Below, piece by piece: positions 4,143 to 21,892 of a DNA stretch of 22,048 nt. The DNA is from Promethearchaeota archaeon (GTDB lineage: Archaea; Asgardarchaeota; Lokiarchaeia; Sigyniarchaeales; SOKP01). The number at the start of each line of letters is the position of its first letter. Positions within the stretch are counted from its first letter, which is position 1. The notes beneath the pieces are model-generated. The model was given only the letters and a program-made list of their open reading frames with translations. It was not told the origin of the DNA and did not search any database. The position numbers and the translations under genes are program-made. The DNA is taken from assembly GCA_016839705.1 (NCBI GenBank), contig JAEOTR010000080.1:1-22048 (forward strand), written 5' to 3'.

Positions 4143-5555
4143 TTATTTTAATTTTAGATATTGGTTCATCGCTTTAGCTGCTTTTCTCCCGGCACCCATA
4201 GCAGATATTACAGTAGCCGCGCCGGTAACAATATCTCCTCCCGCATAAATTCCTTCGACGTTAGTTTTTCCAATCTCATCAGTCACAATATAGCCCCATT
4301 TATTTAATTCAAGTGCAGGATAAGTTGAGGTTAATAAAGGGTTAGAATTGTTTCCTATACCGATAATTACTAAATCAGTTTTAATAATAAATTCAGAGTT
4401 TTCAATTGGGATTGGTCGTGCTCTCCCCGACTCATCGGGCTCCCCTAGTTTCATTTGTATTACCTCCATCTCTTTAACTTTTCCCTCTTCATCACCAATA
4501 AATCTAATAGGATTAGTTAATAATTTAAAAATGATACCTTCTTCCTCTCCGTGATGGACTTCTTCTAGTCTTGCGGGAAGTTGTTCCATAGCTCGACGAT
4601 AGACAATGGTGACTGTATTTGCTCCAAGTCTTAATGCTGTTCTCGCTGAATCCATCGCAGTGTTACCCCCTCCAATAACAACAATATTTTTCCCTTTCAC
4701 TATAGGTGTCTTAAATCTTGGAAAATCATATGCTTTCATAAGGTTGGTTCTTGTTAAATATTCATTAGCAGAGACAATCCCTCTTAAATTTTCACCAGGG
4801 AGACCTAAGAATCGTGGACTACCTGCGCCTATCCCTATAAAAATTGCTTTAAATCCCATTGATTTCAAGTCATCTATACTTAAAACTTTACCAATAATCA
4901 TATTATACTCTATAGTTATGCCCAACATTTTAAGCGTTTCAATTTCGTCTTCTACAATCTCTTTTGGAAGCCGAAACTCGGGGATTCCATATACCAAGAC
5001 ACCTCCACCTTTATGAAAAGCTTCAAAAATGGTTACCTCATATCCAAATCTAGCCATATCAGCAGCACATGTAAGTCCAGCTGGTCCAGATCCAATGATG
5101 GCAACTTTGATATTGTTTGGTGCTTCACAGTCAGGACATTCTTTGAGTTGATTTGCTCTTTCCCAATCTGCTATAAATCTCTCAAGACTACCAATAGCCA
5201 CAGATTTAAATCGCTTTCGCATAACGCATTTTGATTCACATTGGTTTTCTTGCTGGCACACTCTCCCACAAATTGCAGGTAAAATATTATATTCCTTAAT
5301 ACTTCTAACGGCTTCTTGAATTTCTCCTTCTTTAATTAATTTTATAAACTCTGGGATATTGATATTGACAGGGCATCCTTCCACACATAAAGGTTTTGCA
5401 CATTGTAAGCATCTTTCTGCTTCTTTTTGAGCAATCTCGGCATCAAAACCTAGATTAACTTCATTAAAATTTCTAACTCTTAATTTAGGATCTTGGGTGG
5501 GCATTTTTTGCCGTGGGATTCTAACGGATTTTTTTTTAGGAGTACTATCACTCAT
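4143..5555 (-). CDS. nfnB: NfnB(L)/SudA-like NADPH-dependent flavoprotein (GltD-like; often annotated as homotetrameric glutamate synthase)
   Basis: RCLQCAKPLCVEGCP and CGRVCQQENQCESKC Fe-S motifs, GSGPAG FAD site, YGIPEFRL, GGGNTAMD and YRR NADPH site, AGGDIVTG. ATG 5555 lies 7 nt after AGGT(GA) and overlaps the upstream stop. Confidence 0.9.
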   Translation of the reverse strand: MSDSTPKKKSVRIPRQKMPTQDPKLRVRNFNEVNLGFDAEIAQKEAERCLQCAKPLCVEGCPVNINIPEFIKLIKEGEIQEAVRSIKEYNILPAICGRVCQQENQCESKCVMRKRFKSVAIGSLERFIADWERANQLKECPDCEAPNNIKVAIIGSGPAGLTCAADMARFGYEVTIFEAFHKGGGVLVYGIPEFRLPKEIVEDEIETLKMLGITIEYNMIIGKVLSIDDLKSMGFKAIFIGIGAGSPRFLGLPGENLRGIVSANEYLTRTNLMKAYDFPRFKTPIVKGKNIVVIGGGNTAMDSARTALRLGANTVTIVYRRAMEQLPARLEEVHHGEEEGIIFKLLTNPIRFIGDEEGKVKEMEVIQMKLGEPDESGRARPIPIENSEFIIKTDLVIIGIGNNSNPLLTSTYPALELNKWGYIVTDEIGKTNVEGIYAGGDIVTGAATVISAMGAGRKAAKAMNQYLKLK

Positions 5556-8214
5556 CAATATCACCTGTATTGAATTTTTCTATAGCTTTACATGAATGTG
5601 TCTGATAAATAGAGACTTCAGGTTCTTCAAATCTTTCATTACGAGAAAATAGTTCGTCCCATTTAATTTGGTGAGCGTCGAAAATTGGTCCATCTATACA
5701 TGCAAATTTCGTCATTTCTTTTCCATCTACAAGTAGAGTCAAACGACAACAACCACACATTCCTGTTCCATCAATCATAATAGTGTTTAAACTCACAAAA
5801 GTAGGAATATTTCCATGTTCTTTAGTGAAATTTGATGCATCTCTCATCATATAAGTGCATCCTATAAAATAAGCTCTGTCATAATTTATTTTGTGGTTTT
5901 TTAAATGCTCTAATCCTGCTAAAATTTTACCTTTCAAACCCTTAGATCCATCTGAAGAACAATATATTATATTATCTGAGATCTCTTCAAATTCCTTTTC
6001 TAAATAGAATAAATTCTCATTTCTTGCTTCTAAAATGATTATTATCTTATTCCCCGCTGATTTTAATGCTTTAGCGATTGGAAAAATGGCACCATTTCCA
6101 TAACAACCACCTGCTAACAAAACTGTACCAAAATTTTCAATCTCGATATCTTGTCCTAAAGGCCCTACAACACTATAAAGATAATCATTCGGATTAAGAT
6201 CTATTAATTCCATTGTTGAATATCCTGCCTCTTGAAAGTAGAGTGTTATAGTACCTTTTACAGGATCCCAATCAGATATAGTTAATGGTATTCTTTCACC
6301 TATCTCCTCTTTCATTAGAATAACAAAATTGCCCGGTTTTGCTTTTTTAGCCATCAAAGGTGCTTGAATTATTAATTGGTAGAAGTTTATAGCAATTTCT
6401 TTATTAGAAATAACTTTAAATCTCGTTTTCTTTAATTCTTTTACATGTAATTCAGTACTTTCCCCAGAAAATTTAAATTTACGATATTCAATTAAATTAT
6501 TTAGATCTTCTACATGATTCGAGATTGGTTCTCCACGGTACTTAAATGATTCTAATGATACATGTTGGGGTATTAATTGACAAGATTTTTCCTCAAATGT
6601 GTTTGAAGGTAGATTGAATCCTTTCATTAGATTTTCAGAATCTTGTGAGTTAAATTCAGTTTGTTTCTTTATAATTTCTTCATTAATTTCAGAAGTATTT
6701 GAAAAACGAAATTCGCTTTTAATTGAATCATCAAATATTATAGATAACTCACAAAAGATCTCCCAATCTGGTTTTGATACCCCTAGTTTTAAGGCTGCTT
6801 GGGAGAAATAACTTGGTATATGTTCAGAATTAATGAAAGTTCCTGAATCTTCTATAAATGTGCATGTTGGAAGAACTACATTAGCAAACTGAAAGTTCTT
6901 TGAAGGATATATATCTTGCAGTATTAAATATTCAATATTTTTGAGGATTTCCTGATTTTCAAGTCTTTCCGTAAGATATAAAGCTTTTATCCTTCCATTT
7001 TTAATATCATTGATAATATCCTCTTGAGATTTCTTGCTGTTTATTATGATATTTTTCAAAACACCCTTAATATTTGCATTTCTCCAAAGATATTGATCAT
7101 CATATTTGTTATTTAGAAGTGCCGTTAGAACAATATTATCAGTTTTTAGAATTTTTTTAGCAAATTTATGCAAAATATAAGCGGATTCATTTGATAAATC
7201 GACCGAAGTTAATATTGCAATTTCATCAGGTTTGAATTTCATTAGATTTTCTTTTATGGCGTTGTATGCCTCATACCACCCACTTGGGATTAAATTCTTA
7301 TTGTTTTTGACTAAAGGATATTTCAATCTCTTATTTCCATTGTTAAAAGGTACTATACAAAACCGACCAAATACACATGGAAACTTATTATTTGAATAAT
7401 TATTTTTGTTTGGAATTGACTCTACTAGTAATTCATTAAAAGAAAAGTAGTCAAAACTACAATGTATACCACAAAAACCACAAACAGACATTGTTTTGTT
7501 ACTGTTTTTATCAAACCATTTAGTATTTTTTGATGTGATGGCACCTGTGGGACATATATCAATACAAGCGCCACAAAACTGACAATTTGAATCGATGAGA
7601 GAGATATCAAAAGCTGTTGAGACTTTTGTATCATGACCTCGATTCGCAAAATTAATAGCCCCATTCTTTCTTAATTCATTACAAATCCTAACACATTTAC
7701 CACATAAGATACACATATTAGGATCTATTTCTATAAATGGATCATTTCTCTTTAGAGATGAATTCTTGTACTCTAATTGATATTCGACATCATCTATTTC
7801 AAGATAATTAGTAATTTTTCTTAAATCACAGGTTTCCTTACTGGAACAGAAAAAGCATCCAAAAGATCTACCTGCTTTACTTTCACTTCTCCCATCCTCT
7901 TCACATTTATCTTTGTTACCACATACAAGACAAGAGTAGGGATGGTCACTCAATATTAATTTCAAAATCTCTATTCTTAATTCTCGAAGTTCATCGTCAT
8001 TTGTGATAATTTTCATATCATTTTGGGCAGGAGTTGAACAAGCTGTAGGATATCCTTTCATACCTTCAACTTTAACAATACAAAGTCTACATCCTCCATA
8101 AGAAGTTAAATTTTCTATATAACAGAGTGTAGGAATGAATATAACCGCTTTTTTTGCGACTTCTAAAATCGTCTGTCCCTCTAAAAATTCGATGACTGTT
8201 TCGTTGATTTTCAA
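5548..8214 (-). CDS. Fusion: NuoG/HydA/FdhA-like Fe-S domain + truncated molybdopterin-oxidoreductase scaffold + C-terminal NfnA(S)/SudB domain
   Basis: [2Fe-2S] IPTLC...GGCRLC...TAC; HxxxCxxCx5C; CILCGKCVRIC; CQFCGACIDIC; CGFCGIHC...C. Remnants RLKYPL and VVLPTCTFIEDSGTFIN. From aa ~598: AKPGNFVIL...ERIPLTISD...VVGPLG...MIDGTGMCGCCR...CIDGPIFD (NfnA/SudB). Confidence 0.88.
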   Translation of the reverse strand: MKINETVIEFLEGQTILEVAKKAVIFIPTLCYIENLTSYGGCRLCIVKVEGMKGYPTACSTPAQNDMKIITNDDELRELRIEILKLILSDHPYSCLVCGNKDKCEEDGRSESKAGRSFGCFFCSSKETCDLRKITNYLEIDDVEYQLEYKNSSLKRNDPFIEIDPNMCILCGKCVRICNELRKNGAINFANRGHDTKVSTAFDISLIDSNCQFCGACIDICPTGAITSKNTKWFDKNSNKTMSVCGFCGIHCSFDYFSFNELLVESIPNKNNYSNNKFPCVFGRFCIVPFNNGNKRLKYPLVKNNKNLIPSGWYEAYNAIKENLMKFKPDEIAILTSVDLSNESAYILHKFAKKILKTDNIVLTALLNNKYDDQYLWRNANIKGVLKNIIINSKKSQEDIINDIKNGRIKALYLTERLENQEILKNIEYLILQDIYPSKNFQFANVVLPTCTFIEDSGTFINSEHIPSYFSQAALKLGVSKPDWEIFCELSIIFDDSIKSEFRFSNTSEINEEIIKKQTEFNSQDSENLMKGFNLPSNTFEEKSCQLIPQHVSLESFKYRGEPISNHVEDLNNLIEYRKFKFSGESTELHVKELKKTRFKVISNKEIAINFYQLIIQAPLMAKKAKPGNFVILMKEEIGERIPLTISDWDPVKGTITLYFQEAGYSTMELIDLNPNDYLYSVVGPLGQDIEIENFGTVLLAGGCYGNGAIFPIAKALKSAGNKIIIILEARNENLFYLEKEFEEISDNIIYCSSDGSKGLKGKILAGLEHLKNHKINYDRAYFIGCTYMMRDASNFTKEHGNIPTFVSLNTIMIDGTGMCGCCRLTLLVDGKEMTKFACIDGPIFDAHQIKWDELFSRNERFEEPEVSIYQTHSCKAIEKFNTGDIDE

Positions 8215-8238
8215 AGTTTTTTTTTTATTGGTAATCGT

Positions 8239-10059
8239 TTAATCACTTCTTAGTGTTTTTTTTGGTACTTTAGAGATTGAATTATATGGGCATAAATTAA
8301 AGCATAACTCACACTTGATACATAAATCGGGATTAATGAAATGTGGTTCCTTAGAATTGCCCGTAATAGCTTTGGAAGGACAATTATTTTTGCAAACTTC
8401 ACATCCAGTACAATTGTTTTCATCTATTGAAAATGATATCAAATTCTTACAAACAAGAGCGGGACAACTCTTTTCTACTACATGTGCTTCATATTCATCT
8501 CTAAAATACTTTAGAGTTGTAAGAACGGGATTGGGTGCTGTTTGACCTAATCCACATAAACTAGTTTTCTTAATAATGTTTGCTAATTTTTCTAAACGTT
8601 CTAAATCTTTTAAATTTGCTTTTCCTTCTGTAATATCAGTAAGAATATCTAACATCCTCTTAGTTCCTACTCTACATGGGACACATTTTCCACAAGATTC
8701 GTTTTGAGTGAAAGAAATAAAATAATGGGCTAATTCTACCATACAAGTGTCCTCATCTAATACAATAAAACCTCCAGAACCCATTATAGAACCTAATGAG
8801 GTAATACTCACATAATCCATTTTAGTATCTGAAAACCTTGCAGGAATGCATCCTCCTGATGGTCCACCAATTTGAACTGCTTTAAATTTCTTTCCGTTTG
8901 GAATACCACCACCGATATCATGCACGATTTTTCCAATCGATGTACCCATAGGAATTTCTACTAATCCTGAATTATTTATTTTTCCTGTGAGAGCTACAAC
9001 CAAGGTTCCAGAGGCAGATTGAGTTCCTATTGAAGAAAACCATTCAGAACCCTTCTCAATTATTTTAGGGATAAAACTATAGGTCTTAACATTATTGTTA
9101 TTAGTCGGTTTATCCCATAAACCAGATGTTGAAGGATAGGGAGGACGAGGTCTAGGAATTCCTCGCTTCCCCATAATAGAAGCCATTAATGCTGTTTCTT
9201 CTCCACATACAAACGCACCAGCTCCTTTTTTTAATGTTATATTAAAATTAAATCCTGAATTAAGAATATCCTTACCAAGATATCCCGCATCTCTAGCTTG
9301 TTGAATAGCTAAATCAAACCTTTCAACAGCTAAAGGATATTCTGCTCTGATGTATATATAACCATAGTTTGCACTAATTGCATAAGCAGCAATGAGCATT
9401 CCTTCAATAACACTATGTGGATCACTTTCCAAAATAGTCCTATCCATAAACGCTCCTGGATCTCCTTCATCTCCATTACATATTAAATATTTAGGAGTTC
9501 CCTCAGCTTCTTGACATAAAGCCCATTTTTGTCCCGTGAGAAATCCTGCGCCGCCTCTACCTCGTAATCCTGATTTTCGAATCTCGTTAATAACATCTAA
9601 GGGGCTATAATGTTGTAATACTTTTTTAAGTGATTCATACCCACCCTCAAATATATATTCTTTAATATCTTCTGGGTTTATTTTGCCACAATTATCAGTA
9701 ATAATGGGCTTTTGCTCAGAATAAAACTGGATATCATCAATATTTCTTATAAAGTTTCCCGTTTTGGGATCCCTATAAAGTAGTCTTTCAACAATTTTAT
9801 CCTCTAATAAATGTTGCTTGATAATATCTATAACATCACTTTCCTTAAGATTAACATATAAAACATTATCGGGGTCAATGATAAAAGTGGGTCCAACTTG
9901 ACAAAAGCCGTGACAGCCAGTTTTTTTAACGTATATAAATTCTGCTAAGTCCCACTCTTGAATTAATTTCACTAATTCTTCGTGAACAGGATTTGCTTTT
10001 AATGAATTACATCCTGTACCTCTACAAACGCGAATAGTCCTTGTTCGAATTTTATTCAT
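8239..10059 (-). CDS. nuoF: NuoF/HydB(BfuB)-like FMN/NADH-binding subunit, bifurcating-type architecture
   Basis: N-terminal thioredoxin-like [2Fe-2S] (CRGTGC...CHGFC), SGLRGRGGAGF, DEGDPGAFMD, GAFVCGEE, GGPSGG, CGKCVPC...C, EAHVVEKSCPALVC, C-terminal 2x[4Fe-4S]. Confidence 0.93.
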   Translation of the reverse strand: MNKIRTRTIRVCRGTGCNSLKANPVHEELVKLIQEWDLAEFIYVKKTGCHGFCQVGPTFIIDPDNVLYVNLKESDVIDIIKQHLLEDKIVERLLYRDPKTGNFIRNIDDIQFYSEQKPIITDNCGKINPEDIKEYIFEGGYESLKKVLQHYSPLDVINEIRKSGLRGRGGAGFLTGQKWALCQEAEGTPKYLICNGDEGDPGAFMDRTILESDPHSVIEGMLIAAYAISANYGYIYIRAEYPLAVERFDLAIQQARDAGYLGKDILNSGFNFNITLKKGAGAFVCGEETALMASIMGKRGIPRPRPPYPSTSGLWDKPTNNNNVKTYSFIPKIIEKGSEWFSSIGTQSASGTLVVALTGKINNSGLVEIPMGTSIGKIVHDIGGGIPNGKKFKAVQIGGPSGGCIPARFSDTKMDYVSITSLGSIMGSGGFIVLDEDTCMVELAHYFISFTQNESCGKCVPCRVGTKRMLDILTDITEGKANLKDLERLEKLANIIKKTSLCGLGQTAPNPVLTTLKYFRDEYEAHVVEKSCPALVCKNLISFSIDENNCTGCEVCKNNCPSKAITGNSKEPHFINPDLCIKCELCFNLCPYNSISKVPKKTLRSD

Positions 10060-10571
10060 TATTTGAAAATTTGGTTAGTTTTATCTTCTTTTAAATCTTT
10101 AAGAATTCTTTTCAACTTCTTAATTGTTAAATCCCCATAAATTTGCCCATTAATCACGCATACCGGTGATATTGCACAACATCCTAAGCATGCTACTGAT
10201 TCTATACTAAAAAGCAGATCATCTGTTGTTTTACCAGCTCTTATCCCTAATTCGTTTTCAACAAAATATAATAAATGTGGGCCTCCCTTAACATGACAAG
10301 CAGTACCATCACAACATATAAGAATATTTTTTCCCAATTTTTTAAATTTAAACTGCGTATAGAAAGTAGCTATGCTATAAATTTCAGCAAGAGAAATTTT
10401 TAACTTTCTAGATAGGTAATACAAAACATTTGAGGGTAAATATTGATATGTTTCTTGTATTTTTTGCAATATTGAAATTAAATTTCCTTTTTCGCGTTCG
10501 TAAGTTTTCAAGATTTTATTAATCTTGGTTTTCTGCTTATCATTGATTTCATAGAGGAGTTCTTGAGTCAA
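10059..10571 (-). CDS. nuoE: NuoE/HydC(BfuC)-like [2Fe-2S] subunit
   Basis: LISILQKIQETYQYLP, IATFYTQF, CDGTACHVKG, ACLGCCAISP; its stop overlaps the nuoF-like ATG (TAATG). Confidence 0.92.
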   Translation of the reverse strand: MTQELLYEINDKQKTKINKILKTYEREKGNLISILQKIQETYQYLPSNVLYYLSRKLKISLAEIYSIATFYTQFKFKKLGKNILICCDGTACHVKGGPHLLYFVENELGIRAGKTTDDLLFSIESVACLGCCAISPVCVINGQIYGDLTIKKLKRILKDLKEDKTNQIFK

Positions 10572-10703
10572 ATTATCCCATTTCCATGATTTCTACTTTA
10601 AATTTTTAAAACTTTGAATAAATTTTAAATTTGTGATTATTAATAGCAAGGTAAACCAGAGATAGTAATATTTTTGACAAATGGAAAATTTATATATTTA
10701 ATC

Positions 10704-12263
10704 ATGGATACAATACTCGTAATGGATTTCGGAGGTCAATATTGTCATTTAATCGCAAGAAGAATTAGAGATTTAGGAGTATACTCAGAAATTTTACCCT
10801 ATAACGTTTCCCTTGAGAAGATTAAAGCCATAAATCCAAAAGGAATCATTTTATCGGGTGGTCCAAATAGTGTTTATGAAAAAGGAAGTCCACAATTAAC
10901 CGAGGAATTTTATAAGTATGTTTCAGATGAAGATATACCCATTTTAGGCATTTGTTATGGACATCATCTCATAGTACACCAGTTAAATGGAAAGGTTGAA
11001 TCAAAAGAACACAAAGAATATGGGCAAACCGACCTGATTATAATAGAAGATAAAGGTCTTCTTGAAGGTTTTAATAAGAAGGAAACAGTATGGATGTCCC
11101 ATGGAGATCAAGTAAAGCAATTACCAGCGGGGTTTAATGTATTAGCAAAGACAGCTACTTGTCCAATTGCAGCTTATATAAATAATCAAAAAAATATATT
11201 TGGTGTTCAATTCCACCCAGAAGTTGTTCATACTCCTAAGGGTAATATTATTCTGAAGAATTTTGTCAGTAAATATGCAAAAGCGAACAAAGAATGGAAG
11301 TTTGAGGACTGGATCGAGCAAACAATAATGGGGATAAAAGAAAGAGTTGGAACAAATAACAGGGTAATTTTGGGATTAAGTGGTGGTGTAGATTCTTCTG
11401 TTGCTGCAGCCTTAATACATAGAGCTATTGGAGATCGATTACATAGTATCTTTGTGAATAATGGAATGTTACGGAAAAATGAAGCAAATCAGGTTCAAAA
11501 AACATTTAAAGATAAGTTAAGGTATAGAAGCTTTCACTATGTAGATGCAGAAGAATTATTCTTGAACAAGCTTAAGGATATTGAAGATCCAGAAGAAAAG
11601 AGAAGAATTATAGGGCATACTTTTATTGATGTTTTTGAGAAAAAGACTATTGAATTAGAAAAAGAATATCCTGATATAAAATTTCTTGCTCAAGGAACGA
11701 TTTATCCTGATCGCGTGGAGACAAGCGCTACAAGCAACGCTTCTGCGAAAATCAAATCTCATCATAATTTGACTTTACCTGATAATATGAGTCTGGAAGT
11801 ATTAGAACCATTGAAAGATTTATATAAAGATGAAGTTAGAAAGATTGGAGTAAAATTAGGATTACCAAACGAGATAATTAACCGTCATCCCTTCCCAGGA
11901 CCAGGATTAGCAGTGAGAATAATTGGTTCTATAGACAAGGAAAAGTTAAACATTCTACGAGATGCTGATGAGATTTTAATTGAGGAAATACGAAAAGCTG
12001 GTGTGTATGAGAGCCTTTGGCAGGCATTTTGTGTATTTCTTCCCCTAAAAACTGTCGGAATCATGGGAGATTATCGTACCTATGAATATATTTGCGCGAT
12101 TAGAGCTGTGGAATCATTAGATGCAATGACTGCAAACTTTGCAAAATTAGATATGGATTTATTAGAAAGAATAGGAACTCGTATTATAAATGAAGTAAAA
12201 GGTATAAATCGTGTTGTTTATGATATCTCTAATAAACCACCAAGTACTATTGAATATGAATAA
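10704..12263 (+). CDS. guaA: GMP synthase (glutamine-hydrolysing), fused GATase + ATPPase form
   Basis: DFGGQY, GICYG, MSHGD, QFHPEV, SGGVDS, IKSHHN, HPFPGPGLAVR, KPPSTIEYE; start taken at ATG 10704. Confidence 0.97.
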   Translation: MDTILVMDFGGQYCHLIARRIRDLGVYSEILPYNVSLEKIKAINPKGIILSGGPNSVYEKGSPQLTEEFYKYVSDEDIPILGICYGHHLIVHQLNGKVESKEHKEYGQTDLIIIEDKGLLEGFNKKETVWMSHGDQVKQLPAGFNVLAKTATCPIAAYINNQKNIFGVQFHPEVVHTPKGNIILKNFVSKYAKANKEWKFEDWIEQTIMGIKERVGTNNRVILGLSGGVDSSVAAALIHRAIGDRLHSIFVNNGMLRKNEANQVQKTFKDKLRYRSFHYVDAEELFLNKLKDIEDPEEKRRIIGHTFIDVFEKKTIELEKEYPDIKFLAQGTIYPDRVETSATSNASAKIKSHHNLTLPDNMSLEVLEPLKDLYKDEVRKIGVKLGLPNEIINRHPFPGPGLAVRIIGSIDKEKLNILRDADEILIEEIRKAGVYESLWQAFCVFLPLKTVGIMGDYRTYEYICAIRAVESLDAMTANFAKLDMDLLERIGTRIINEVKGINRVVYDISNKPPSTIEYE

Positions 12264-14859: not shown

Positions 14860-16506
14860 TTAATAGTTTCCTGAATAAATCTCGTTTTTGACTAACTCAA
14901 AATCTAGTGATTCTTGGGATTTTATTCCAAGATCCCATTTATAGCACACTTCTTTAGCTCTTTGAGTGATATATGCAATATCTTCGCGACTCAGTAAGTT
15001 TAATTTAAATTTCCGAACCCCTGCTAATAATTGCTTTATTCCAATACCTAATTTACTCGCAAAATAAGTATAAACCCCTACGGCTGAAGGTGGGATATAT
15101 TTTCCATTATAAACTCTATGCAAATTATCGTATTCAACAAACGCCTCATTTATAGTTAAACTCCTAGGATCTTTCTCTTTTGGAAATCCTAAGTTCTTTA
15201 ACATTGCTGGTGTTTGTTGTTTCTTATCAATGACGTCACCAATATATTTTGCTTTCATTGCAGCGGTAATTGGTGCTCTTGCCATTGCTATACAGTTTAT
15301 GTAGGGTGCCCCCATCGCAAGTGCTTTAAACATCTGGGTTTCATTTGCAATACCACCTGCGATTGCTATCGATGGTATAGTTGTGTTTGGGTTTTTACTC
15401 TTAATCATGTCAAGGCAGCCAACCACAAGTGCTTCTAAATATGCAGTCGGAATTGAACCCTCATTCATCATGCTTACAGGACTCATACCCGTCCCTCCAC
15501 CGGCCCCATCAAATGTCATCCCATCCACTTTTCCTTCAATTCCCATTCTTATAATCCATGCTGTTGCCGCTGGTCTATATGCTCCAGTTTTTATGAATAT
15601 ATTCTTTGCACCGTTGGAACGTATTTGGTCAATTTCTTCTAAAACATCCTCTGTAGAAGAGAGTCCTACTCTACTATGCCTTTCAAAGTCTGGAATCAAT
15701 CCTGCTTTCCATTCTTCTATAATAAAAGGATCAGAGGGATCTGGGAAAACTAAATATCCCCTTTCTTGCAGTAACTGTGCTCGTTCTAAAGATTCTAACC
15801 GAACTTCACCTCCAATTGCCTTTGCTCCTTGACCAAATTTTATTTCAAGAGAATTTACTTCTAGGTTAGAAGTGACATAGTCAAATACACCTAATCTTGT
15901 ATCCTCAACATTTTTTTGAACAATGATATCTCCGTGTTTACCATCCCAGAATTTCCTAAAAGTTTCTACACGGTTTTTCATATCCACAGTATCAATCACT
16001 TGAGGATATACAGAATGGTTAGCAAATTTAGAACCGGGATCCATACCAACAACATTCTCACCTACTGTGATACTTACTCCTGCCAAAGCTGCACCTATTG
16101 CTAAACCATCCCAATTGCGTTTCGCAACATAGGTACTTCCTAATCCTGCTATCACAAAAGGGAGTTTTTGATCTATATTTCCCCATTTAGTAGAGATGTC
16201 AACATTAGGAAAAATTACCTTATCTTCGTGAGCTTCAATCCCTTGAGCTCCTCGACATTCAAATTGAATTTGAAAATCACTATATGAAAAACCAAAATCT
16301 TTTGGTGAACCTGCAGTAGAATTACCAAAAAACTCTCTTCGAGGATACAGTACTTCACGACCTCTAAGTGCTGATTTTGAAACTTCACAAAAAACAGGGC
16401 AATCGGCAACACAAATCGGGCATAATCCAGATTCACAAGAATCCTCAACCCTTGTCTTGGATCCAATCATACTCATTTGATGGGTATCCATTGAAAATTT
16501 TGTCAT
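14860..16506 (-). CDS. gltB: Stand-alone FMN-binding glutamate synthase subunit (GltB domain-2 family, N-terminal Cys-rich type)
   Basis: CPICVADCPVFCEV, EIKFGQGAKAIGGE, DGAGGGTGMSP, IAGGI...KALAMGAP; no glutamine amidotransferase domain. Confidence 0.88.
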   Translation of the reverse strand: MTKFSMDTHQMSMIGSKTRVEDSCESGLCPICVADCPVFCEVSKSALRGREVLYPRREFFGNSTAGSPKDFGFSYSDFQIQFECRGAQGIEAHEDKVIFPNVDISTKWGNIDQKLPFVIAGLGSTYVAKRNWDGLAIGAALAGVSITVGENVVGMDPGSKFANHSVYPQVIDTVDMKNRVETFRKFWDGKHGDIIVQKNVEDTRLGVFDYVTSNLEVNSLEIKFGQGAKAIGGEVRLESLERAQLLQERGYLVFPDPSDPFIIEEWKAGLIPDFERHSRVGLSSTEDVLEEIDQIRSNGAKNIFIKTGAYRPAATAWIIRMGIEGKVDGMTFDGAGGGTGMSPVSMMNEGSIPTAYLEALVVGCLDMIKSKNPNTTIPSIAIAGGIANETQMFKALAMGAPYINCIAMARAPITAAMKAKYIGDVIDKKQQTPAMLKNLGFPKEKDPRSLTINEAFVEYDNLHRVYNGKYIPPSAVGVYTYFASKLGIGIKQLLAGVRKFKLNLLSREDIAYITQRAKEVCYKWDLGIKSQESLDFELVKNEIYSGNY

Positions 16507-17613: not shown

Positions 17614-18093
17614 CTATTCTTCAGTTATTAATTCTGCTAATGAGCTATTTTCTTTAATTATATTCAAAACTATATGAGTATTAGTGCGCTCAACAAAAGG
17701 TGATGCGTGAATGTTTTCTTTTATCATTTCACTAAGTTCTGATCTCGTTTTAAACCTAGCTAAAATAAGGGCGTCATAAGTTCCTGTAATATCATATACT
17801 GCAAATACATTAGGAATCTGTGCTATTTTTTTCTCTACTTCCAGCATTTTTCCTTTTGAAACTGTAATTTCAATAAGGGCAATGATATCATATCCTAATT
17901 TTTCGTAATCAATTTGAGCACCGTAATTCTTTATTATACCATTCTTTTCCAAATTCTCAACATGATTCTTGATTGTAACTGGAGATCCTACATCCAGATC
18001 TTTTGCAAGTTGACGAAGTGAGATTCTACCATCTTTGCTAAGATTAGTAAGGATTTTAATATCTAAATCAGAAAAATTCATCTTTGAGTTCAT
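17614..18093 (-). CDS. Lrp/AsnC family transcriptional regulator (Lrp-2)
   Basis: DLDIKILTNLSKDGRISLRQLAKDL...LEKNGIIKNY, VYDITGTYD, ERTNTHIVL. Start uncertain (18132, 18093 or 18081); 18093 chosen because TTTAATAA begins 31 nt upstream (leaderless geometry). Confidence 0.92.
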   Translation of the reverse strand: MNSKMNFSDLDIKILTNLSKDGRISLRQLAKDLDVGSPVTIKNHVENLEKNGIIKNYGAQIDYEKLGYDIIALIEITVSKGKMLEVEKKIAQIPNVFAVYDITGTYDALILARFKTRSELSEMIKENIHASPFVERTNTHIVLNIIKENSSLAELITEE

Positions 18094-18280
18094 AGTATTA
18101 GATAGCTTTAATTTCGTTATTAAATTATGCATTTGTTCATATCATACATAGAAAAATAACTAAATGATCATTATTTTTACCGACAAAAATTATTAACTTA
18201 ATCGATCATTCACTTTATTTAAGAATTATTGATCATTTATAAATCTTTTTTTCCATAAATGTTAACATTCGAGCTAGTCA

Positions 18281-18805: not shown

Positions 18806-18839
18806 ATTAAATTGAAAAAAAATATTAAGGGTGAAAATT

Positions 18840-20189
18840 ATGATTGACAAAGAAGATCCAAAAAGGAAACAAATATGTGATGATGTAATAGAAACTATAA
18901 AGGAGGAAGATATAAAATATATTTATCTTCAATTTACAGATATTCACGGCATCATCAAAAGCTTTGAAATTAATTCAAAACGAATTGAAGATATTTTTGA
19001 AGTAGGTGAAAATTTTGATGGGAGTTCGATAACTGGTTATGGCGCAATAGAGGAAAGTGATAAAGTCGCTCTTCCTGACCCAAGCACATTTTATATTTTA
19101 CCATGGAGAAAAGAGAAAAAGGTAGCCAGGGTAATATGTGATATATTTAAACCTGATGGAGAGAGATATGAAGGGGATCCACGCGGTATTTTGCTAAGAG
19201 CCGTTAAAAAAGCAGAAGATCTAGGTTACAAATTTCAATGTGCCCCAGAAATGGAATTTTTCATACTGACCCCTGATACTAAACAGGAATTTAAACCTTC
19301 TGATATGAGAGGATATTTCGATTATGATCCTTATGATATTAGTGAGATGATTAGATACACAATTGCAGAATATTGCGATGCAATGGGGGTTAATGTTGAA
19401 TGTATCCATCATGAGGTTGCCTATGGTCAACATGAAATAGATTTTCGATACGATAAAGCTGTTGAAACAGCAGACAATACAATCACAATAAAAACAATAG
19501 TTAAAACTGTTGCAGCCCAAAATAACCTAATTGGCACATTTATGGCTAAACCATTTGATGGAATAAATGGGTCTGGTATGCATGTGCATCAATCTTTGTG
19601 GAAGAATGGAAATAATGTATTTTATGATAAAAATGATAAAGATAATATTTCATTAACAATGAAGAAATGGATCGCAGGACAATTAAAACACGCAAGATCT
19701 ATGTGTGCTGTTCTGAGCAGTTGGCCAAATTCCTATAAAAGACTTGTTCCAGGGTATGAAGCCCCCGTTTATTTAGCGTGGGGATTTAGGAATAGATCAC
19801 CATTAATAAGAGTTCCTGATTTTCATGGACGCCCTAATGCTGCAAGATGTGAGATAAGATGCCCAGATCCCTCTGGAAATCCTTATCTTCAATTTAGCGT
19901 GCTACTGATAGCTGGTTTAGAGGGTATTTTATCAGACGATATAGAAATTTCGGAACCAACAGATAGAAATGTTTATCATCTTTCTAGTAAAGAAATGGAA
20001 AAAGAAGGGATTATATCTCTGCCCGGAAGTCTACATGAAGCATTGATAGAATTTAAAAATTCAGAATTAATGAAAGAAGTCTTTGGAGAAACTGCATTTA
20101 AAAACTATTATTATGCCAAACTTGAAGAATTTGATGCCTATCGAGTTATTGTAAGTGAATGGGAAAGAAATCGTTATATAAGATTATAA
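18840..20189 (+). CDS. glnA: Glutamine synthetase type I (alpha-type length, ~449 aa)
   Basis: LQFTDIHG, FDGSSITG, APEMEFF, HHEVAYGQHEI, FMAKPFDGINGSGMHVHQS, SYKRLVPGYEAP, NRSPLIRVP, EIRCPDPSGNPYL. ATG 18840 is 7 nt after GGGT(GA). Confidence 0.97.
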   Translation: MIDKEDPKRKQICDDVIETIKEEDIKYIYLQFTDIHGIIKSFEINSKRIEDIFEVGENFDGSSITGYGAIEESDKVALPDPSTFYILPWRKEKKVARVICDIFKPDGERYEGDPRGILLRAVKKAEDLGYKFQCAPEMEFFILTPDTKQEFKPSDMRGYFDYDPYDISEMIRYTIAEYCDAMGVNVECIHHEVAYGQHEIDFRYDKAVETADNTITIKTIVKTVAAQNNLIGTFMAKPFDGINGSGMHVHQSLWKNGNNVFYDKNDKDNISLTMKKWIAGQLKHARSMCAVLSSWPNSYKRLVPGYEAPVYLAWGFRNRSPLIRVPDFHGRPNAARCEIRCPDPSGNPYLQFSVLLIAGLEGILSDDIEISEPTDRNVYHLSSKEMEKEGIISLPGSLHEALIEFKNSELMKEVFGETAFKNYYYAKLEEFDAYRVIVSEWERNRYIRL

Positions 20190-20242: not shown

Positions 20243-21892
20243 ATGTCAAATAGAAAGTTAAATATTGTGATAGTTCAGATTAATCCAATCGTGGGTGATA
20301 TTGAAAATAACACTAATAAAATTATGGAAATCTCAGAAAAACACCAAGAAGCGGATATTATTGTATTTCCTGAAATGTCCTTAGTAGGATATCCCTTGAT
20401 GGATCATATCTTTGATCCTCTTGTAAGAAAAAAAAACCAAGATGCGATAGATAAAATTAAGAGATTAAACTCAAAAGCTACTATTATTTTTGGAACATTC
20501 ACCGAACCTCCAGAATTAACTGAAAATTTTCAGCCATTTTTCAATTCAGCATTAATTATAAAGGGCAAAGAAATTAAATATATTGAAAATAAACGTTTAA
20601 TACCTAATTATGACGTTTTTGATGAGCATCGATATTTTTCATTTGATATAAAGTTCAAACCTATAAAAATTCATGGTGTAAACGCAGGTATTTTAATCTG
20701 TGAAGACGTATGGGATGATACTTATGATCTAAAAGTTACAAATAATCTTGTATCAAATGGTGCTGAAATTTTAATTGTAATAAATGCATCCCCTTATCAT
20801 ATTAATAAGTTAGAATTAAGACACAATATAATTAAAAAAAAATCCAAAATGTTTGAAATCCCTATTGTTTATGGCAATATGGTTGGTGGCCTTGATGAGA
20901 TAGTTTATGATGGTCAGAGTTTTATTACAAATAAATTTGGACAAATAATTTTTCAAGCTAACGCATTTGAGGAGGATATTAGGAGTGTAGAGATTGAAAT
21001 GGATAATGCTCAAGAGATCCAAGAAAATCCTTCTAAATCAGATTGGAGAGAAAATGTAGTAAAAGCACTTAAATTAAATTTATTTGATTATTATCATAAA
21101 AGTGGAATATTTAAAGGAGTAGTTTTAGGATTGAGTGGGGGTATAGATTCAGCATTCACCGCATACATTTGCGCAGAAGCCTTAGGACCAGATAAAGTAA
21201 CCTGTATAATGATGCCTACACGCTTTACTTCACAAGATAGTCTAGATTTAGCTAAAAAATTATGTGATAATACAGGAATGAATTATATCACTCACCCGAT
21301 TGATGAAATCTTTGAGATCTATCAAAAAGATTTGGAAAGAAATTTGGGAAAATTGATTTTTGATGTCGCAGATGAAAATCTACAAGCTCGAATTAGAGCA
21401 AATCTATTGATGTATTATTCAAATAAATTCAATTGGTTGTTAGTCTCCACAGGAAATAAATCCGAGATTGGAGTTGGCTTCTGTACTTTATATGGTGATA
21501 CTTGTGGTGGTAAAAACGTACCTGGAGACCTTTTAAAAGTTCAAATTTATGATATTTGTAAGTGGATAAATAAAGAAAAAGAGATAATTCCAAAAAGGAT
21601 AATAGAGAGAACTCCAGCTGCAGAATTGCGTGAAAATCAGAAGGATAGTGATTCTATACCTCCATACGAAATCCTTGATCCAATATTAGAGGAAATAATT
21701 GAACATGGAATTGGTTCTGAATTTGAAAATTTAAAAAACAAGAATTTTGAGACTAATACTATCAATAAGGTAAGAAATCTATATTTAAATTCAGAATATA
21801 AACGGAGACAATTGGTTCAAACAATAAAAGTAAGTGAAAGCGCATTTGGGATTGGGAGAAGATATCCAGTATTAAAGAAAATAAAATTCTAG
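20243..21892 (+). CDS. nadE: Glutamine-dependent NAD+ synthetase (nitrilase-like glutaminase + synthetase)
   Basis: E-K-C triad contexts FPEM, KRLIPNYDVFDE, ICEDVW; LSGGIDS, ENLQARIR, TGNKSE, TLYGD, SEYKRRQ. Confidence 0.96.
   Translation: MSNRKLNIVIVQINPIVGDIENNTNKIMEISEKHQEADIIVFPEMSLVGYPLMDHIFDPLVRKKNQDAIDKIKRLNSKATIIFGTFTEPPELTENFQPFFNSALIIKGKEIKYIENKRLIPNYDVFDEHRYFSFDIKFKPIKIHGVNAGILICEDVWDDTYDLKVTNNLVSNGAEILIVINASPYHINKLELRHNIIKKKSKMFEIPIVYGNMVGGLDEIVYDGQSFITNKFGQIIFQANAFEEDIRSVEIEMDNAQEIQENPSKSDWRENVVKALKLNLFDYYHKSGIFKGVVLGLSGGIDSAFTAYICAEALGPDKVTCIMMPTRFTSQDSLDLAKKLCDNTGMNYITHPIDEIFEIYQKDLERNLGKLIFDVADENLQARIRANLLMYYSNKFNWLLVSTGNKSEIGVGFCTLYGDTCGGKNVPGDLLKVQIYDICKWINKEKEIIPKRIIERTPAAELRENQKDSDSIPPYEILDPILEEIIEHGIGSEFENLKNKNFETNTINKVRNLYLNSEYKRRQLVQTIKVSESAFGIGRRYPVLKKIKF

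Follow-up and report, generated by a model that had tools for sequence, protein, structure and literature searches.

The 22,048-nt window analysed here (G+C content about 30%), from contig JAEOTR010000080.1 of a Promethearchaeota archaeon of the Lokiarchaeia, carries four closely packed minus-strand open reading frames (ORFs; 10571..4143) that encode a real, conserved and apparently undescribed variant merging two known families of bifurcating enzymes, Bfu and NfnSL. The gene order is nuoE-like (bfuC), nuoF-like (bfuB), a gene in which the large Bfu subunit BfuA is fused to NfnS, and nfnL. The best explanation we can offer, which we consider about evenly poised between right and wrong, is that the four products form one soluble complex, an Nfn-Bfu enzyme that uses a whole NfnSL as its NADP(H) module and catalyses the net reaction of Nfn and Stn.

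The genes were compactly arranged. The bfuC gene (10059..10571, minus strand, TTG start, 170 aa) and the bfuB gene (8239..10059, minus strand, 606 aa) overlap by 1 base, a gap of 24 nt separates bfuB from the fusion gene (5548..8214, minus strand, TTG start, 888 aa), and the fusion gene overlaps nfnL (4143..5564, minus strand, GTG start, 473 aa) by 17 nt. An initial annotation made from the sequence had proposed this order of overlapping or near-abutting genes, and the ORF coordinates agree with it. Directly 5' of the TTG with which the fusion gene begins lies an A10 homopolymer (8215-8224), and no stop codon interrupts the frame over a further 8 codons upstream.

Domains were assigned with Pfam and NCBIfam profiles, and the proteins were compared with chains of solved structures in the Protein Data Bank. 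By all sequence tests applied, the operon encodes a Bfu core (BfuBC, Schut et al. 2022). BfuC consists of a complete thioredoxin-like [2Fe-2S] domain (2Fe-2S_thioredx, PF01257, full length, E 2e-46); it is encoded together with BfuB, and its gene heads the cluster in all related loci. BfuB, the NAD(H)- and FMN-binding HydB-type subunit, contains an N-terminal thioredoxin-like [2Fe-2S] piece followed by Complex1_51K, SLBB, NADH_4Fe-4S and two Fer4 domains. Its best structural match was the B subunit of the Acetomicrobium mobile NiFe-Bfu (7t2r_B, E 4e-230), and it also aligned from end to end with 7q4v_B, 8a6t_B, 9n5u_B, 9bov_B, 8oh5_B and 7p5h_B, a group of solved bifurcating B subunits that includes HydB of A. 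woodii, T. kivui and T. maritima, NfnB of T. sibiricus and C. saccharolyticus and StnB of S. ovata. The FMN and NADH motifs that are specific to bifurcating members, the EGDPGAFM-type loop (aa 198) and GGPSG (aa 398), were present, as were GAFVCGEE (aa 281) and H..CPALVC (aa 532), so that every BfuB motif named in the initial annotation was found. Besides the B1 cluster, sites for the extra clusters B2 to B5 were present, in the N-terminal Cys pattern (aa 12-53), the H..CPALVC site and two CxxCxxCxxxCP motifs (aa 550 and 580) that form the C-terminal 2x[4Fe-4S] ferredoxin-docking domain; B2 may be either a cluster or Zn. An assignment to the NADH module of complex I (NuoEFG) was rejected, since BfuB has 606 aa with extra domains and no membrane-arm nuo genes occur within the 22-kb window.

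The fusion protein matched Fer2_4, NADH-G_4Fe-4S_3 and Fer4_Nqo3 and, of PF00384, the beginning and the end but not the middle. Its first 290 residues (7345..8214, minus strand) form an Fe-S wire of the BfuA/NuoG/FdsA type, as seen from the Pfam matches and from alignments to 6tg9_A, 9bov_A, 7t2r_A and 8a6t_A; the NuoG/HydA-type wire that had been predicted was confirmed. The ligands comprise a [2Fe-2S] site (C31/42/45/59), a His-ligated [4Fe-4S] site (H91-C95-C98-C104), two ferredoxin-type [4Fe-4S] sites (C168-178 and C211-221) and a MopB-type cluster, A5 (C245/248/252/280). An extra C120-x2-C123-x5-C129 motif duplicates the motif of the His cluster and may be the site of an additional cluster. 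All of these ligands, including the extra Cys motif, were invariant in 119 of 119 relatives. The resulting tandem motif (H-x3-C-x2-C-x5-C / C-x2-C-x5-C; aa 91-129, 7828-7944 in the window) lies in a region of low confidence in the AlphaFold2 (AF2) model, and in the alignment it sits exactly where StnC/NfnA of Stn/NfnABC hold their inserted GltD domain. The fusion is not the only setting for this tandem motif, since 112 of 143 representatives (50% identity clusters) of NuoG-like proteins in which the NfnS domain is missing also have it.

Residues 291-597 (6424..7344, minus strand) form a shrunken, catalytically dead molybdopterin-oxidoreductase scaffold and a linker. The PF00384 match was limited to profile positions ~1-120 and 244-351, PF01568 was absent, and a vestigial domain-IV strand (YRGE) could be recognized. 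Neither the protein studied here nor the long Asgard forms had a Cys at the position of the selenocysteine (Sec)/Cys-His pair of formate dehydrogenase (Fdh). The H-cluster domain (PF02906) was not found in the fusion, and [FeFe]-hydrogenase models matched aa 2-105 only, far below cutoff. A shrunken scaffold lacking both a Cys/Sec site and an H-cluster had been described in the initial annotation, and this description held. On these grounds formate dehydrogenase was rejected for this protein and for all Asgard forms (partial PF00384, no PF01568, active-site Cys/Sec-His gone), and an [FeFe]-hydrogenase of the HydABC type was rejected because PF02906 was not matched. The partial NCBIfam matches to NuoG, Fdh-alpha, HoxU and FeFe-hydrogenase A6 covered the Fe-S wire only, with scores nowhere near the curated cutoffs. 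All 119 relatives, even split forms of 522 aa, have kept A5 and the dead MopB stump. The AF2 model of the fusion (59 homologues) had a mean pLDDT of 83 and a pTM of 0.80, with low confidence confined to the linkers (519-543 and 586-592) and the Cys-rich insert. In Foldseek searches with this model, the first two thirds matched NuoG/NDUFS1, FdsA and the A subunit of NiFe-Bfu, and the last third matched NfnS. A distant relative from a metagenome, P0076 (1229 aa), has a full FdhA-type MopB (PF00384 and PF01568) fused to an NfnS domain; it shares a GGCYG signature with the NfnS of the hybrid, and its Sec/Cys-His position reads Cys-Asp.

The last third of the fusion (aa 598-888; 5548..6423, minus strand) is a complete NfnS/NfnA domain. 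Residues 599-877 matched PRK06222 (sulfide/DHOD-like FAD/NAD protein; E 4e-94), and the domain aligned to 5jca_S (E 6e-65; Foldseek TM-score 0.90) and 4ylf_A (E 6e-62), with about 40% identity to solved NfnS. The FAD strand ERIPLT (ERxPxT; E640-R641-P643), the [2Fe-2S] site made of one Asp and three Cys (D815, C820, C823, C839) and an Asn of the NfnI type (N810) that lies over the flavin were all retained. The canonical NAD(H)-binding domain, with its GGGxGxA and xGP loops, was not: the protein has GGCYG for GGGVG and GC for GP. When 125 Bfu-linked sequences (fused and split, archaeal and bacterial) were compared with 13 unlinked Asgard copies, six positions were specific to the linked group, namely C704 (canonical G), Y/F705 (V), G708 (A), E729 (G), C786 (P) and M634 (R). 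These residues were invariant or nearly so in the linked sequences, the changes at 704, 705, 708, 729 and 786 occurring in 125 of 125, and they were not seen in the 13 unlinked ones (M634 and Y705 hardly so); the P. furiosus NfnI and T. maritima structures are canonical at all six. The claim of a full-length NfnA domain in the initial annotation was therefore correct as to completeness, but the domain is not a plain NfnA, its crevice being remodelled in every Bfu-linked member. According to the AF2 secondary structure, C704, E729 and C786 come after strands 1, 2 and 4 of the Rossmann sheet, in the crevice beside the FAD of NfnS (S-FAD), and the fold topology suggests that the three residues are close in space. 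The site may no longer serve free NAD(H). An Fe-S cluster bridging the domains, with ligands from the extra Cys motif of BfuA and from the two Cys of the NfnS crevice, was considered and dropped, since the tandem motif occurs in most NuoG-like representatives without NfnS and the two features are not exclusive partners. The invariant two-Cys signature in the former NAD(H) crevice offers a concrete, mutable handle for experiments.

In a maximum-likelihood tree of NfnS, with an unlinked sample from Asgard archaea only and two PyrK-like paralogues as the root, all linked copies formed one clade (support 100/99). Fused forms from Asgard archaea were nested among split ones and those from bacteria made up a separate clade, indicating at least two independent fusions.

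NfnL (NfnB) was canonical. It matched TIGR01316 with 603 bits, above the cutoff, and aligned over its full length with T. maritima NfnB (4ylf_B, E 2e-168) and with the L subunit of P. furiosus NfnI (5jca_L, E 1e-156). It has a Pyr_redox_2 fold, the two [4Fe-4S] motifs (C52/55/60/64, and C103/109/113 plus Glu; defined as RCx2Cx4Cx3CPV and GRVCxQExQCx3C in PMC6405883), the FAD-N5 arginine R198 and the NADPH arginines R323/R324. The cluster motifs and these arginines were invariant in linked and unlinked copies, as were 114 alignment columns in total. A search for changes specific to linked NfnL that could mark a new docking face returned a single position, Q328. A role of NfnL as the small subunit of a glutamate synthase is not favoured, since its partner is NfnS, just as in Nfn, and the window's gene for a GltB-like protein belongs to another transcription unit. 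According to this comparison, what is new here is the monophyly of linked NfnS and the remodelling of its crevice, with NfnL unchanged.

The fusion itself is well reproduced. The junction (nt ~6400-6700) lies in an unbroken reading frame and recurs in dozens of orthologues that are 53-82% identical across 100% of the length, in independent ENA, JGI, NCBI and Logan assemblies; the initial annotation had proposed recurrence in relatives as a check, and the junction passed it. An assembly chimera was rejected on this basis and because the gene cluster is found in many loci. Clustering at 90% identity gave more than 120 protein clusters of independent origin with the same architecture. The nearest database proteins came from metagenome-assembled genomes of Promethearchaeota, Lokiarchaeota, Thor-, Hel- and Heimdallarchaeota. 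Asgard forms fall into size classes of ~890 aa and 1030-1125 aa, the latter with a larger but Cys-less MopB domain; bacterial forms of ~830-845 aa, which carry the names Deltaproteobacteria and Syntrophales, were 35-37% identical at 98% coverage. The protein found matches in 212 of 301 sampled Asgard genomes, many of them to the NfnS part only. In all loci examined (14 Asgard and 3 bacterial), the order was nuoE-nuoF-nuoG'-nfnS-nfnL, nuoG' and nfnS being joined in one gene at some loci and forming an overlapping pair (522-796 aa and 284-298 aa) at others. No recurrent extra subunit gene was seen at these related loci, except guaA or gdhA in close relatives.

The hybrid was absent from congeners, which instead have a canonical nfnS followed by a gene for an FrhB-ferredoxin-NfnL fusion. 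In these and other Lokiarchaeia of the same family f1 (L039:373-3108, minus strand; L040, L042 and L045-L048), the NfnL protein of 862-928 aa carries an N-terminal 2x[4Fe-4S] ferredoxin and an FrhB/FdhB (F420-type) module. By its domain composition, this is a second way to plug NfnSL into another redox module. Some loci of the split hybrid (L031:14754-16673, plus strand; L032:11599-14302; L038:12668-15362) also had a canonical nfnSL pair at a distance of 1-5 kb; among these pairs, one NfnS is fused to a Pyr_redox_2 flavoprotein (639 aa) and two NfnL proteins are extended N-terminally by ~120 aa.

Since both halves of the operon have known relatives, the hybrid was compared with them. It resembles NfnSL/NfnAB (T. 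maritima 4YLF/4YRY; P. furiosus NfnI 5JCA) in the full-length NfnL and in the FAD, [2Fe-2S] and Asn features of NfnS. It differs in that NfnS is fused to BfuA (in split forms, encoded by the adjoining gene), is encoded together with BfuBC and has a remodelled crevice, so it is not the free-standing two-subunit enzyme without a HydBC-type partner. P. furiosus NfnII (5VJ7) is a non-bifurcating enzyme that makes no use of NAD(H), and ferredoxin:NADP+ activity is carried by its L subunit alone (PMC12506544). The hybrid is similar to NfnII in that L is essentially unchanged and the NAD(H) site of S has diverged. However, NfnII is free-standing, with an extra loop and an Arg blocking the site and a His over the flavin, whereas the NfnS domain of the hybrid has point substitutions only, two invariant Cys and the NfnI-type Asn810.

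Like the hybrid, Stn/NfnABC (Nfn-Bfu, Type 1 Bfu; S. ovata 8OH5, C. saccharolyticus 9BOV, T. sibiricus 9N5U) has a BfuBC core and a NuoG-like wire whose Fdh-like domain is dead, and its NADPH site is a GltD/NfnL-type FAD accompanied by two [4Fe-4S] clusters. Its B subunits were the closest solved ones after those of NiFe-Bfu and HydB. In Stn/NfnABC, however, the GltD-like domain is inserted in BfuA, has lost bifurcation and is accompanied by no NfnA homologue, while in the hybrid NfnL is separate, canonical and paired with NfnS. This contrast, drawn already in the initial annotation, agreed with the structure alignments: 8oh5_C, 9bov_A and 9n5u_A matched NfnL at their aa ~100-500 and the Fe-S wire at ~550-800. 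The fusion has neither Fer4_20 nor Pyr_redox_2, carries an NfnS domain and leaves NfnL to its own gene, which places it outside Type 1 Nfn-Bfu. As in NiFe-Bfu HydABCSL of A. mobile (7T2R) and other Type 2/3 Bfu enzymes, extra subunits would deliver electrons of a third substrate to a non-catalytic BfuA; unlike the hydrogenase, WOR, PFOR and CODH modules of that group, the module here is NfnSL, itself a bifurcating enzyme, with one subunit fused to BfuA. Class II benzoyl-CoA reductase has a HydBC-type module in series with a second bifurcating flavin (bioRxiv 10.64898/2026.04.10.717634; proposed in PMC9304861). Its BamB-I complex resembles the hybrid in that a single assembly combines a Bfu-type confurcating module with another flavin-based bifurcating module. 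That other module is HdrA, however, benzoyl-CoA and ETF serve as the outputs, and neither NfnSL nor NADP(H) is involved.

The Bfu classification contains Nfn-Bfu only as Type 1, with the NfnL-like domain inside BfuA (PMC9304861), and a review of Nfn lists four fusion patterns, none with NuoG. The hybrid architecture was not described in the literature searched on Bfu, Stn, Nfn, Asgard metabolism or archaeal hydrogenases, in line with the initial annotation, which knew of no characterised example; its BfuB sequences may sit unremarked in one of the 57 clades of Schut et al. 2022.

How would such an enzyme work? BfuA has neither an H-cluster nor the Fdh Cys/Sec-His, it has no NiFe partners, and the ORF list and the annotation of the window contain no further catalytic gene in the operon, which leaves NfnSL as the only candidate for the third substrate. 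Stn/NfnABC shows that electrons can pass from a GltD-type FAD and its two [4Fe-4S] clusters along a BfuA wire into the flavobicluster (PMC12018979, PMC10482914). This precedent, together with the pattern of a changed S and an unchanged L known from NfnII, points to an Nfn-Bfu enzyme built from a whole NfnSL. In such an enzyme, BfuBC would supply FMN, the NAD(H) site and the ferredoxin-docking 2x[4Fe-4S] domain, and BfuA would act as an Fe-S wire with a dead molybdopterin domain, on which NfnSL would be held through NfnS. NfnSL would provide the missing substrate, NADP(H), at the FAD of NfnL, and NfnS would serve mainly as an anchor and electron buffer. The net reaction would be 2 NADPH + NAD+ + 2 Fd(ox) <-> 2 NADP+ + NADH + 2 Fd(red), where Fd is ferredoxin, with NAD(H) handled at BfuB. 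Two contacts with the wire are candidates, one between the distal [4Fe-4S] cluster of NfnL and the His-cluster region (as in Stn/NfnABC), the other between S-FAD and A5. Several points weigh against this proposal. We infer that the subunits form one complex, and that step is argued from fusion and synteny alone. It is a puzzle why a whole NfnS should be kept if only NfnL is needed. The changes in the crevice are point substitutions with no occluding loop, and E729 could still bind ribose. Furthermore, NfnL keeps the FAD-N5 Arg and both low-potential clusters, and NfnS keeps the FAD and [2Fe-2S] ligands and the NfnI-type Asn; NfnSL may thus still be bifurcating, which the proposal does not need.

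These retained hallmarks bring up a different reading, inferred already in the initial annotation and possible but unlikely in our judgement, in which bifurcation takes place twice in series. NfnSL would bifurcate NADPH, its high-potential branch would reduce NAD+ at NfnS, and its low-potential branch would feed the BfuA wire, where BfuBC would bifurcate again, giving a new net stoichiometry of approximately 4 NADPH + 3 NAD+ + 2 Fd(ox) -> 4 NADP+ + 3 NADH + 2 Fd(red). Both modules keep every sequence hallmark of bifurcating sites, and serial modules have a structural precedent in class II benzoyl-CoA reductase. With E' values of -380, -280 and -500 mV (PMC9304861), our own arithmetic gives an acceptor mean of -335 mV, so the process would be downhill by ~45 mV per electron. 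However, the cascade requires an intact NAD(H) site on NfnS, and exactly that crevice is specifically remodelled in all linked members; the contact between the distal NfnL cluster and BfuA is an assumption, and the energetics are calculated. Because the NfnS crevice is remodelled, as in the non-bifurcating, NAD-blind NfnII, one working bifurcation site (that of Bfu) with NfnSL as NADPH input appears at least as likely as a double-bifurcating wire. If the cascade did operate, it would provide more driving force per ferredoxin, or in reverse a more ferredoxin-sparing route to NADPH, at an NADPH:NADH:ferredoxin stoichiometry (e.g. 4:3:2) unlike that of every known transhydrogenase, and energy-starved Asgard archaea and syntrophic bacteria could tune how much low-potential ferredoxin is gained or spent per NADPH.

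The remodelled crevice could also be taken as a new electron port. S-FAD would then exchange electrons with A5 through the former NAD(H) crevice, BfuBC would replace free NAD(H), and NfnL would use free ferredoxin. NfnS is the covalently attached and the only remodelled partner, A5 and the stump are conserved throughout the 119 members, A5 in true Fdh enzymes is the cluster beside the active site (PMC9304861), and the globally confident single-chain AF2 model predicts that the NfnS domain packs on the stump. Obligate coupling to Bfu would, however, make the reaction ferredoxin-heavy (~6 Fd(red) + NADH -> 4 NADPH) and essentially irreversible. By our arithmetic ~65 mV per electron would be lost in the NADPH-forming direction and the reverse would be impossible, which is odd for energy-limited Asgard archaea; moreover, the equivalent A5 in Stn/NfnABC is 20 Å off the path and was judged non-participating. 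We regard this wiring as improbable, and the idea of two independent enzymes sharing a transcript as more so. In that case an ordinary NfnSL and a BfuABC with a third-substrate partner encoded elsewhere would be merely co-transcribed and the fusion would be a neutral accident. Both enzyme types use the same cofactor pools, and co-regulation alone could explain the synteny. Yet the fusions are independent and recurrent, the gene order is conserved across two domains of life, linked NfnS has its clade-specific remodelling, no extra catalytic neighbour recurs and BfuB occurs once in the genome. That the junction is an artefact, or that the family was misread and is really a formate dehydrogenase, a hydrogenase or a complex I NADH module, we consider very improbable indeed. 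The partial NCBIfam matches, and the full MopB with a dinucleotide-binding domain in the distant P0076, speak for a misreading; the matches are confined to the wire and fall far short of the cutoffs, the Fdh residues, the H-cluster and membrane Nuo genes are all missing, and more than 100 clusters (90% identity) of independent origin show the same junction.

NfnSL and the Bfu-type Nfn (Stn/NfnABC) are regarded in the field as two unrelated answers to one problem that usually exclude each other. Nfn is found without a HydBC homologue and Stn without an NfnA homologue, most species having one or the other (PMC10482914), and the T. sibiricus paper presents them as unrelated alternatives. A conserved, repeatedly fused enzyme that contains both contradicts this dichotomy. 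The linkage of NADPH, NADH and ferredoxin through joined NfnSL and Bfu is widespread, occurring in Asgard archaea and in bacteria, and the hybrid is a natural test of what happens when a bifurcating FAD is plugged into a second bifurcating centre. Models of eukaryogenesis give a central place to Asgard redox balance and the syntrophic H2/formate economy. The hybrid was the only enzyme of either type found in this genome, which is 93% complete; the nuoF-like gene of the operon is the sole NuoF homologue and its nfnL the only close NfnL there. The same genome (contig C15, L052:3009-4826, plus strand) encodes a 605-aa protein in which an FrhB_N/C module is fused to a PyrK/NfnS-like FNR and [2Fe-2S] domain, the NfnS-like part being 29% identical to the NfnS domain of the hybrid.

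Upstream of the operon, an AT-rich intergenic region (10572..10673) with TATA-like runs separates bfuC from the divergent guaA and probably holds the operon promoter. The neighbouring genes of the window form a nitrogen/glutamine neighbourhood, comprising guaA (10674-12263), a gene for a GltB-FMN-domain-like protein (14860-16506), glnA (18831-20189), glutamine-dependent nadE (20243-21892) and genes for two AsnC/Lrp regulators (973-1449 and 17614-18132). In three relatives (L004, L005 and L027), gdhA, encoding glutamate dehydrogenase, lies directly 3' of nfnL, which fits a role of the enzyme in balancing NADP(H).

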